A DNA stretch of 64,000 nt from the UHGV virus genome UHGV-0167591; one strand, written 5' to 3'. Below, piece after piece: positions 50,011 through 52,998 of the stretch (its first letter is position 1; each line of letters begins with the position of its first letter). A program made the position numbers and the translations under genes. The DNA comes from a virus. Under the pieces are notes generated by a model. It saw only the letters and a list, made by a program, of their open reading frames with translations. It did no database searches and had not been told where the DNA came from.

Positions 50011-52998
50011 ATGAGCTTAAGCGATCAGGTGGTGATGGCCACCAGCATAGAAACGCTGATCGAGCTGCTAAAAAACCTGCCCGATTACGGGCGGGTTTCG
50101 TATGTGGTGACAGCGAAGGGAGACGAGGTAAAAACAGCGTTTGATATCGTCGATGCCTCAGCTCTTTTGGTATCCAATACTCTGGATGGGAAAATTAATC
50201 CATACTATCCCCAGGAACTTCAGCCGCGCGACCGGACCCGCGCATCCAGCCTTCTTCAGGTCAACCAGATATCCAAGGATTTGCGTCCTGCCCAGCTTAC
50301 CGATTCCGGTTTATCCAGCCATGGCGCGCCGATAATTGGTGAGGACAATGCCGTTGAGTCAGGTAATGGACGGACCATGGGGATCATCAAAGCCTATCAG
50401 GACGGCAATGCGGATCGGTATCGTGAGTACCTGATTGAACATGCGACCGAATTCGGAATACGACCTGAAAAGGTTGAATCAATGACGGCTCCGGTACTGG
50501 TGCGCCGCCGGTTAACGAAGGTTGACCGCGTTCAGTTTGCCAAGGACTCAAATATTTCTGATCTTCAGGAAATGGCAGCCAGTGAAAAGGCTTTTGTTGA
50601 TGCCGACAGCATAACACCGGCGATGATGGCGCTGTTTAATCCGTCAGAAAGCGGAGATCTGCTTAGCCGCAGTAATGACGCGTTTATTCGCGGATTCATG
50701 ACGCAAGTTGGTGCCACACAGGCGGCTGGCCTTGTAACTGAAGATGGGCGACCAACACGGCAACTTGTAGACCGTATACAAAACGCGATCTTTGCCAAGG
50801 CATATAAGGATGCGCGCCTGGTAAGGATGGTTGCAGAAGAACCTGATCCGGATATGCGTAATGTTCTGACGGCGCTTAATGCGGCAGCCAATGATTTTGT
50901 CCAGATGCAGGCTTTATCAGGAGAAGCGCACAAGCAGGCTGTGACAACTATTGTTGATGGCATTGAGACAGCGGATAGCCTCGATAAAAAGGCGCTGGCG
51001 GCATTGAAAGATGCGGTAGACCTGGTAAGGCAATCGAAGGAGTCAGGCCAGCATATTACCGATGTTATTGCTCAGGGGGATATGTTCAGCGAAACGGCCC
51101 CGGAAGTGAAAGCACTCGCGTTGTTCATCGTCGCGAATAACCGTAGCGCGAAGCGTATGGCCACCGCCTTTAAGTTGATGGCTCAACGTATCAATGATGA
51201 GTTACAGCACCAGGGCCAGGCGCTGGGGGATATGTTTGGCGGCGGCGATGTGTCGTTACAGGATATCCTTCGCCAGGTGTCTCAGGAACTGGAAAACGAA
51301 GGCATGCAAGGGATATCCGGCGGTCTTTTCGAGTCCGTTTCCGGCGGTAGTTACAACGGTGTTGCTCCGTATACCAGTTTGCTATTACATCGGGCATCCG
51401 GCATCAAAGACATTATTCATCTGATCAGGCTGCTTTCCCGCACAGATCCCCAGGATGAACAGCTTGTACAAGTGCTTGCGCATTTTGTTCGAATGCCTGT
51501 TGCCGACGTGAAAAAATGGTGCCGATTATTCGGTATCAGCAATTCGTTACTTCGCGGCTTGTTAAATCACGCATCCTCCCTTGGGCGCGATGGCTTTGAC
51601 GAGATAGCGCAGGCGATAAAAAACGGAGATATGCCACCAGCTATTGACTGGTTTTCCATTCGCCCAACCAGGGTGAAAGCATTCCTTAGCGCGGCGCATT
51701 CGGCATCACCATTGGCAGAAATGGTTCAGAGGTTGTCGCTCATATTCACAGACCATACCGCGTTGGGTGATCTGACTCTGGACGAGATGAAAGAAGCCTC
51801 CATTCAGTGGGCCGATCAACAAAATGAGGTTAACTCAGACTTCTTGCCAGCATTCAGGAAGGCCGTTAGTAAAGCGGATGATGCCCGTGGAATTCTGAAG
51901 GCATTTAAGGCATTGCAAAGTCGTGTTAATAAACATGTCGGTGATATCGATGGGGTAACGGCGGAAGGCCGGGATATCCTTAAAGAGCACGGCATAACGC
52001 CAGAGTTTATTGATGAGATCAGGACTGATATGCAGCGTGAGGTCGTATCGTCCCTGCAAATCGTAGCCAGAGCGTTGGCGGATGCTAATCCGAAGAGTGC
52101 GGCCATTGTTAACCGGGTTATTGGTGATATTGAAGCATCGGAGGGCATGGGGGCGCTGAAACTCTTCCTTTCGCGAGCGTTTAATCCTAACGGCAATATT
52201 CTCCCTGGCATTATTGGTGAGGCTAAAAAGTATGTCAGTGAAGAAGAACTTGAGCAGCTTGACCAACTACTTAAGCGATTCTCATATAACCCGCAGACAC
52301 GCTGGCAAATGAATCAGCGAAGTATGGGTTCGGTCCACGAGAAAGTGTTATCTGCCATGAACAGTGCGATCGCAAACTCATCCGTATCTGAAGAAAAAGC
52401 TCTTGAGTGGGCCGACTCTTTTATCACAGAAGAAGTGGAAGAAGCCCGCGCTGGACAGAATGGTGGGATAGACCTGCGCAAGGAACTTGCTGATATTTAT
52501 CGCCTGACCGGCGGGAAAATATCGACCTTATCAAAGGTAGTTCACCACCAGGGAAGGGCATATGCAAATCTAAATGGTGTTGTTGCTGTCAATTTGAACG
52601 ATGAAAATGCAAGTGCACTGTGGCACGAGCTGGGTCATCATCTTGAGTACAGTAACCCTGGTTTGTTAGAGAAAGCCCGGTCATTCCTGAAGGCCAATGT
52701 TGAAGGGGATAAGCCATCTTTCGTCAATATCGGTGGGCGTGGCAAGCCTGAATGGTGCTTCAGATCTCGATTGAGTAATATTTATATGGCGAAGGTATAC
52801 CCGCCAGCCTCAGTAAGTAACACCGGGAAAATTCGGCAGAAATCACCGACTATTTCCAAAACGTCAGCAACGGAAGTATTCTCTATGGCTCTTCAGTTGT
52901 ATCATGACAAAGAGGCCGCTGCCGCATCACTGATGAATGGTGACGGATTGCTGGAACTGTTATTAGGTGTGGCAAAGGAGCTAAATAATGCAGATTAA
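50011..52998 (+). CDS. large dar-operon protein (DdrB-like) with HExxH motif
   Basis: 995 aa; WHELGHHLEYSNP at 52621-52659. Confidence 0.45.
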   Translation: MSLSDQVVMATSIETLIELLKNLPDYGRVSYVVTAKGDEVKTAFDIVDASALLVSNTLDGKINPYYPQELQPRDRTRASSLLQVNQISKDLRPAQLTDSGLSSHGAPIIGEDNAVESGNGRTMGIIKAYQDGNADRYREYLIEHATEFGIRPEKVESMTAPVLVRRRLTKVDRVQFAKDSNISDLQEMAASEKAFVDADSITPAMMALFNPSESGDLLSRSNDAFIRGFMTQVGATQAAGLVTEDGRPTRQLVDRIQNAIFAKAYKDARLVRMVAEEPDPDMRNVLTALNAAANDFVQMQALSGEAHKQAVTTIVDGIETADSLDKKALAALKDAVDLVRQSKESGQHITDVIAQGDMFSETAPEVKALALFIVANNRSAKRMATAFKLMAQRINDELQHQGQALGDMFGGGDVSLQDILRQVSQELENEGMQGISGGLFESVSGGSYNGVAPYTSLLLHRASGIKDIIHLIRLLSRTDPQDEQLVQVLAHFVRMPVADVKKWCRLFGISNSLLRGLLNHASSLGRDGFDEIAQAIKNGDMPPAIDWFSIRPTRVKAFLSAAHSASPLAEMVQRLSLIFTDHTALGDLTLDEMKEASIQWADQQNEVNSDFLPAFRKAVSKADDARGILKAFKALQSRVNKHVGDIDGVTAEGRDILKEHGITPEFIDEIRTDMQREVVSSLQIVARALADANPKSAAIVNRVIGDIEASEGMGALKLFLSRAFNPNGNILPGIIGEAKKYVSEEELEQLDQLLKRFSYNPQTRWQMNQRSMGSVHEKVLSAMNSAIANSSVSEEKALEWADSFITEEVEEARAGQNGGIDLRKELADIYRLTGGKISTLSKVVHHQGRAYANLNGVVAVNLNDENASALWHELGHHLEYSNPGLLEKARSFLKANVEGDKPSFVNIGGRGKPEWCFRSRLSNIYMAKVYPPASVSNTGKIRQKSPTISKTSATEVFSMALQLYHDKEAAAASLMNGDGLLELLLGVAKELNNAD

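Follow-up and report, generated by a model that had tools for sequence, protein, structure and literature searches.

Does the antirestriction protein DdrB carry a working protease, and if so, what would it cut? To address this question, we analysed a window of 64,000 nucleotides from the virus genome UHGV-0167591, given as one strand from 5' to 3', in which a gene for a 995-residue protein lies in a dar operon, the Dar system being a classic example of virion-packaged antirestriction. Conservation and structure prediction together make it very probable that residues ~764–995 of this protein make up a zinc metallopeptidase (MPTase) domain of gluzincin type with its catalytic residues intact, for which self-processing would be the most likely role. 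Taken on its own, the identification as an active-type zincin is the part that we hold with the greatest confidence, and such a domain would presumably act as an active endopeptidase.

DdrB carries a conserved HExxH motif in its C-terminal domain

The gene shares 99.0% nucleotide identity with ddrB of P1 (NC_005856), and its product differs from the reference P1 DdrB at 11 of 995 residues, none of them in or near the motifs. A sequence-only reading of this DNA had called the product DdrB-like; the relation is correct, but judged by this identity the gene is ddrB itself, from a P1-like phage. Its layout is as follows.

50011–52998, + strand: ddrB open reading frame (995 residues plus stop), from the open reading frame list and its translation; the late darA operon has no large gene after it
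50116–50511, + strand: ddrB-ParB domain (residues 36–167; Pfam PF18763, E 1.7e-39), part of the N-terminal module
51358–52284, + strand: central all-α module (residues 450–758), from the secondary structure and confidence of the full-length AlphaFold2 model; variable alignment columns
52300–52995, + strand: predicted zincin-like MPTase domain (residues ~764–995)
52624–52638, + strand: HELGH (H872, E873 and H876), the sole HExxH of DdrB, residues 872–876

An HExxH motif had been noted near the C-terminus of the protein, and HELGH is indeed found there. The string quoted around it, WHELGHHLEYSNPGLLE, begins at 52621 as given, but the noted end at 52659 spans just the first 13 of its 17 residues; the full 17-mer covers residues 871–887, or nucleotides 52621–52671. 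The composition of DdrB predicts 0.026 HExxH by chance, and three occur in the open frames of at least 100 residues in the window (30,483 residues, six frames). HExxH alone is thus weak evidence, and it is conservation that supplies the strength.

An exhaustive HMMER search of 1.84 billion representative proteins with residues 751–995 returned 392 relatives at E ≤ 1e-3, including 34 at E ≤ 1e-10. The best 157 of these 392 relatives were re-aligned over a domain of ~225 residues, equivalent to DdrB residues ~770–995, from which all residue counts below are taken. When the domain or its alignment served as query in a word-indexed search for homologues, few matches came back, mostly short proteins. 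The motif residues H872, E873 and H876 are present in 159/159 homologous domains, and are invariant too in a 27-sequence domain alignment, in an alignment of 40 full-length DdrB homologues and in a further alignment. Outside the motif, Y925 and E955 occur in all 160 domains, E955 being invariant also in the 27-sequence and full-length alignments, while E879 is found in 159 of 160, Y930 in 158 of 160 (and invariantly in the DdrB homologues), E914 in 155 of 159 and R849 in 155 of 158. The catalytic residues are kept in very divergent homologues, down to ~20–25% identity. Since these residues are invariant among homologues, HELGH is no chance motif.

The 40 full-length homologues (37–61% identity) vary over residues 440–780 and are conserved on both sides, in the first 440 residues and in the C-terminal domain. 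Specifically, the N-terminal module (residues 1–432) is highly conserved, with invariant columns dense to about residue 440. The full-length AlphaFold2 model has a predicted local distance difference test (pLDDT) of 81 and flexible linkers at residues 310–321, 407–411, 433–449 and 759–763. The central module, flanked by the low-confidence linkers 433–449 and 759–763, is poorly conserved and confidently predicted as all-α, and a Pfam scan matched nothing in it. With ddrB-ParB and MPTase domains in one polypeptide, and with packaging known from the literature, DdrB has the make-up of a polyvalent protein.

Within the family, the domain is C-terminal in 82 cases and internal in 76, and four proteins carry two copies. 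Among 76 members scanned, the fusion partners are ddrB-ParB (12), the Phage_Mu_F head-morphogenesis domain (6), InPase (2) and ParB_N (1). Matches in PHROG and BFVD are phage proteins, some of which bear the names minor head protein, head morphogenesis or large polyvalent protein, and the setting of the family is thus of the polyvalent protein type. The dar operons of P1-like plasmids of Vibrio parahaemolyticus (896–8845 of the contigs) encode an Hdf-like protein, a 1514-residue DarA-like protein and a 614-residue DdrB homologue. The MPTase is absent from this homologue, which consists of InPase and ddrB-ParB, and from the rest of the 15.8-kb locus. Because such a P1-like dar operon exists without it, the MPTase is an accessory module that is not intrinsic to Dar function.

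The predicted fold resembles zincin endopeptidases

An AlphaFold2 model of residues 751–995, built from the 27-sequence alignment without templates, reached a pLDDT of 90.5 and a predicted template modelling score of 0.87. Its elements follow one another as a helix, a small β-sheet, the HExxH helix, a second helix, β-hairpins and a helix that starts just after E955. HELGH sits on the helix formed by residues 868–881 (model residues 118–131), which spans residues 867–881 in the full-length model. Structure comparison with solved folds gave scores of 7.6 for PPEP-3 (143 aligned residues), 7.0 for PPEP-2, 6.6 for the lethal-factor-like domain of Certhrax, 6.5 for anthrax lethal factor (LF), 6.3 for MtfA, 6.2 for edema factor and 5.3 for Wss1; M34 and M90 enzymes are the nearest solved folds. 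The model thus displays the N-terminal helix, mixed β-sheet, active-site helix and next helix of a predicted zincin core, together with likeness to solved zincins.

The sequence-only reading had recognised a zincin signature in the C-terminal ~200 residues, and would have given it up had the motif fallen in a non-zincin predicted fold. Instead, HELGH lies on a helix of a confident model of predicted zincin type and is invariant across the family. In the profile and structure search of this region that had been proposed as a check, the structure comparison yielded M34/M90-type neighbours and the profile side no significant model. Additionally, phmmer found no significant match among PDB sequences, and a PHROGs scan returned unnamed families and one metallo-protease family at E 0.45 only.

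Active-site residues

The residues discussed here map as follows.

52645–52647, + strand: E879 of HExxHxxE, at the position of LF D693 (HEFGHAVD) and of the aspartate of MtfA (HEVAHKLD)
52798–52800, + strand: Y930, candidate counterpart of the catalytic tyrosine of M34/M90 enzymes (LF Y728)
52801–52860, + strand: P1-clade insertion of ~20 residues (residues 931–950) between Y930 and E955, from the 27-sequence alignment and spacing statistics
52873–52875, + strand: E955 in TEVFSM, at the start of the core helix 956–962

The sequences of LF (pXO1-like plasmid) and E. coli MtfA, taken from real records, compare with the family in two segments.

Lethal factor: HEFGHAVD (H686, E687, H690); Y728-x6-E735-FFAE
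MtfA: HEVAHKLD; Y204-x6-E211-CFA
DdrB family consensus: HE.GHH.E; PY.GK.Y-x(5-6)-TEVFSM

In DdrB itself the first segment reads HELGHHLE. From tyrosine to glutamate the modal spacing is 6 in the DdrB family versus 7 in LF and MtfA; in P1 it is 25 because of the 20-residue insert, over which the pLDDT falls to 71–83. In hhalign comparisons of the family profile with single sequences, HExxH pairs with HExxH and E955 with LF E735, with weak scores (probability 7.9% for LF and 6.7% for MtfA). E955, 79 residues after H876, is the probable third zinc ligand, which would make the domain gluzincin-type. The sequence-only reading had pointed instead to glutamates downstream within the quoted string. 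The invariance of E879 is borne out, but not a ligand role, as E879 occupies the HExxHxxD position of LF and MtfA and E955 is the likelier ligand; E879 and E887 probably do not bind the metal. E879 is also the acidic +3 residue remarked on by Iyer, Burroughs, Anand, de Souza and Aravind (2017; PMC5512222). Together, we infer that H872 and H876 would hold the zinc with E955, that E873 would serve as general base, and that Y930 and/or Y925 would be the transition-state tyrosine, as in LF.

Self-processing as the leading functional proposal

DdrB is expressed as part of the late darA operon, and it is established in the literature that the head takes it up with other Dar proteins. Under the proposal that we favour, the MPTase would cut DdrB itself by limited proteolysis, in the head or after ejection, and the cut would detach the N-terminal module, conserved and ParB-like, from what follows. 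Among the functional options we put this one first, though tentatively; effector, trimming and structural roles are rated lower.

In PMC5512222, the idea of autoproteolysis goes back to an early description of a head protein of 76 kDa. DdrB cut at residues 759–763, and so rid of the MPTase, would weigh 83.4 kDa; cutting near residue 700 would give 76.4 kDa, and cutting near residue 310 a C-terminal piece of 74.9 kDa. Because cuts near either end fit, the 76-kDa mass cannot tell which part is retained, and we rejected it as a marker of the cleavage site.

Several results weigh against the reading of DdrB as a self-processing zincin. Pfam and NCBIfam scans of residues 801–995 and of full DdrB gave no peptidase model at the gathering threshold, and family members match M91, reprolysin-like, M60 and Zincin_1 models only below threshold and in a scattered manner. 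Foldseek against the PDB gave nothing significant, and the PDB sequence that came out best in a profile search, at an E value of 0.57, was that of a botulinum-like M27 enzyme, with the alignment placed at HExxH. For the choice of ligand, E914 and E879 are near-invariant as well. Finally, DdrB is present in virions with 39 unique peptides at 59.5% coverage, in a proteome whose supplement has no peptide map, and this coverage mildly favours the presence there of more than a 690-residue piece.

Alternative roles

The strongest competitor to self-processing, though still unlikely, is an injected effector protease, which would come in alongside the DNA and cut a protein of the host, e.g. a defence or regulatory factor. 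The nearest solved folds, LF and the PPEPs, are secreted or injected toxin-type endopeptidases, and DdrB is head-internal and part of a system co-ejected with DNA; a host-effector role is also the alternative given in PMC5512222. Against it, no substrate is known for such a protease, ddrB is non-essential, and its knock-down brings no plating defect on the E. coli K-12-derived BW25113. Nor is the metalloprotease of ArdC needed for antirestriction, for which it proved experimentally dispensable. Genetic evidence is counted on both sides: Piya and colleagues are said to have found in 2017 that ddrB loss alters the EcoB/EcoK restriction phenotype, but the deletion reportedly lowers, and does not raise, the sensitivity of P1 to EcoB/EcoK, the opposite of what losing an anti-defence protease would produce.

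We consider improbable a broader version in which the MPTase, as an LF/PPEP-like endopeptidase with sequence specificity, leaves the virion together with P1 DNA and cuts in trans either a host factor or DarB, so tuning antirestriction and not just maturing DdrB. If true, it could account for the lowered EcoB/EcoK sensitivity reported for the ddrB deletion, and P1 would become the first model phage for which a zincin effector delivered by the virion has been demonstrated.

Slightly more doubtful is the maturation or trimming of other packaged proteins (DarA, DarB, Ulx, DdrA) in the procapsid. DarA does undergo proteolytic processing during head maturation, DdrB is listed as helping DarB to join the capsid, and the MPTase is often fused to MuF-type head-morphogenesis modules. 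However, the accepted candidate for head-protein processing is P1 Pro, a dedicated prohead protease like T4 gp21; DdrB is reported to enter the head after Hdf, DarA and DdrA; and in Vibrio the dar operons have Hdf-like and DarA-like products but lack the MPTase.

About equally doubtful is that the fold is kept mainly as a structural or encapsidation module, with catalysis irrelevant to the Dar phenotype. The virion RNA polymerase of N4 offers a precedent, since its MPTase-containing region is required for encapsidation and the protein stays unprocessed (PMC5512222), and the protease-independent antirestriction of ArdC fits as well. Yet if catalysis were not under selection, it would be hard to see why all catalytic residues are invariant in very divergent homologues; this invariance likewise led us to reject a pseudo-enzyme. 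That HExxH arose by chance in a non-zincin fold, or marks a non-peptidase HExxH enzyme, is hardly credible and effectively refuted by the invariance, the predicted fold and the solved zincin neighbours.

Setting of ddrB in the darA operon

The operon genes were named from open reading frame coordinates, Pfam matches to DarA_N and DarA_C, and the P1 annotation.

46357–46686: lydA, darA operon
46683–47126: lydB, darA operon
47104–47715: hdf, darA operon
47717–49636: darA, darA operon
49633–49998: ddrA, darA operon
52988–53305, + strand: hxr, darA operon, after ddrB

The start of hxr overlaps the stop of ddrB by 11 nucleotides. Hxr has 105 residues in the window (P1 hxr is a 309-nucleotide gene) and ends in a C-terminal run of eight aspartates. 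Inside ddrB, an antisense frame of 132 residues (50565–50963, − strand) is the annotated P1 iddB ('internal to ddrB'). In AJ000741, the 1998 GenBank entry for the darA operon, a 1-nucleotide gap within 1501–4487 splits ddrB into ORFVI (715 residues) and ORFVII (283 residues), and because of this split the older literature on ddrB product sizes may follow a wrong gene model.

The region from hxr to ssb (53300–55000) is without the IS1 element and isaB of the reference P1, and matches Salmonella phage SJ46 and vB_EcoM-Ro157c2YLVW at 98.8–98.9%. A frame of 260 residues there (53335–54117, − strand) has no match in Pfam. Between the dar operon and ssb, a 281-residue frame (54124–54969, − strand) encodes the IsaA homologue of P1-like phages, whose C-terminal residues 197–280 match a Tad2-like domain (Thoeris anti-defence 2, PF11195; E 2.4e-22), which makes it a candidate signal-sponge anti-defence gene.

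Comparison with known systems

Among the polyvalent proteins of phages and plasmids, no module is commoner than the MPTase, and we know of no MPTase with a defined substrate. A protease predicted to be catalytically intact in the capsid would offer a handle testable by mutation. The prediction of a zinc metallopeptidase is itself already known. The P1 RefSeq/GenBank record, annotated in 2004, labels DdrB 'unknown protein function; possible metallopeptidase', and in the 2017 paper the MPTase at the C-terminus of P1 DdrB is named and serves as the lead example, so that the present identification is a correct rediscovery. The sequence-only reading had further proposed processing of Dar proteins or attack on a host factor, and these ideas too are found in PMC5512222, which suggests autoproteolysis before packaging, or effector roles, for the DdrB MPTase. 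In the literature searched, later papers repeat the list of Dar components, and we found neither an experiment on the MPTase domain nor a published assay of Zn2+ binding or peptide-bond hydrolysis by DdrB.

The polyvalent-protein MPTase of PMC5512222 and the domain described here are the same object. The core given there (an N-terminal helix, a three-stranded sheet, the HExxH helix, a glutamate-bearing helix and an acidic residue at +3) is that of DdrB, and the fusion partners found here (ddrB-ParB, InPase and MuF) are those named there. We add little beyond this: a confidently predicted model, a list of the residues that are invariant, E955 and Y930 among them, the P1-clade insert, and M34/M90 enzymes as nearest folds. 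The work is thus a confirmation that supplies residue-level targets, not a discovery.

We do not place DdrB in M34 or M90: no family member matched Pfam ATLF or M90 even at E ≤ 10, and the hhalign scores of the family profile against LF and MtfA are weak. The M34 enzymes (LF and PPEP-1/2/3) are secreted bacterial toxins or proteases, whereas DdrB is a virion-internal phage protein, and the segment from the HExxH helix to the glutamate helix measures 45 residues in LF versus 79 in DdrB. MtfA (Mlc titration factor A, M90) works as a regulator and an aminopeptidase in the E. coli cytoplasm, and its sequence similarity to DdrB is not significant. ArdC of plasmid R388/pSa, like DdrB, joins a C-terminal zincin domain to a nucleic-acid-related N-terminal domain (PMC5512222), and it passes into the recipient cell and acts against type I restriction.
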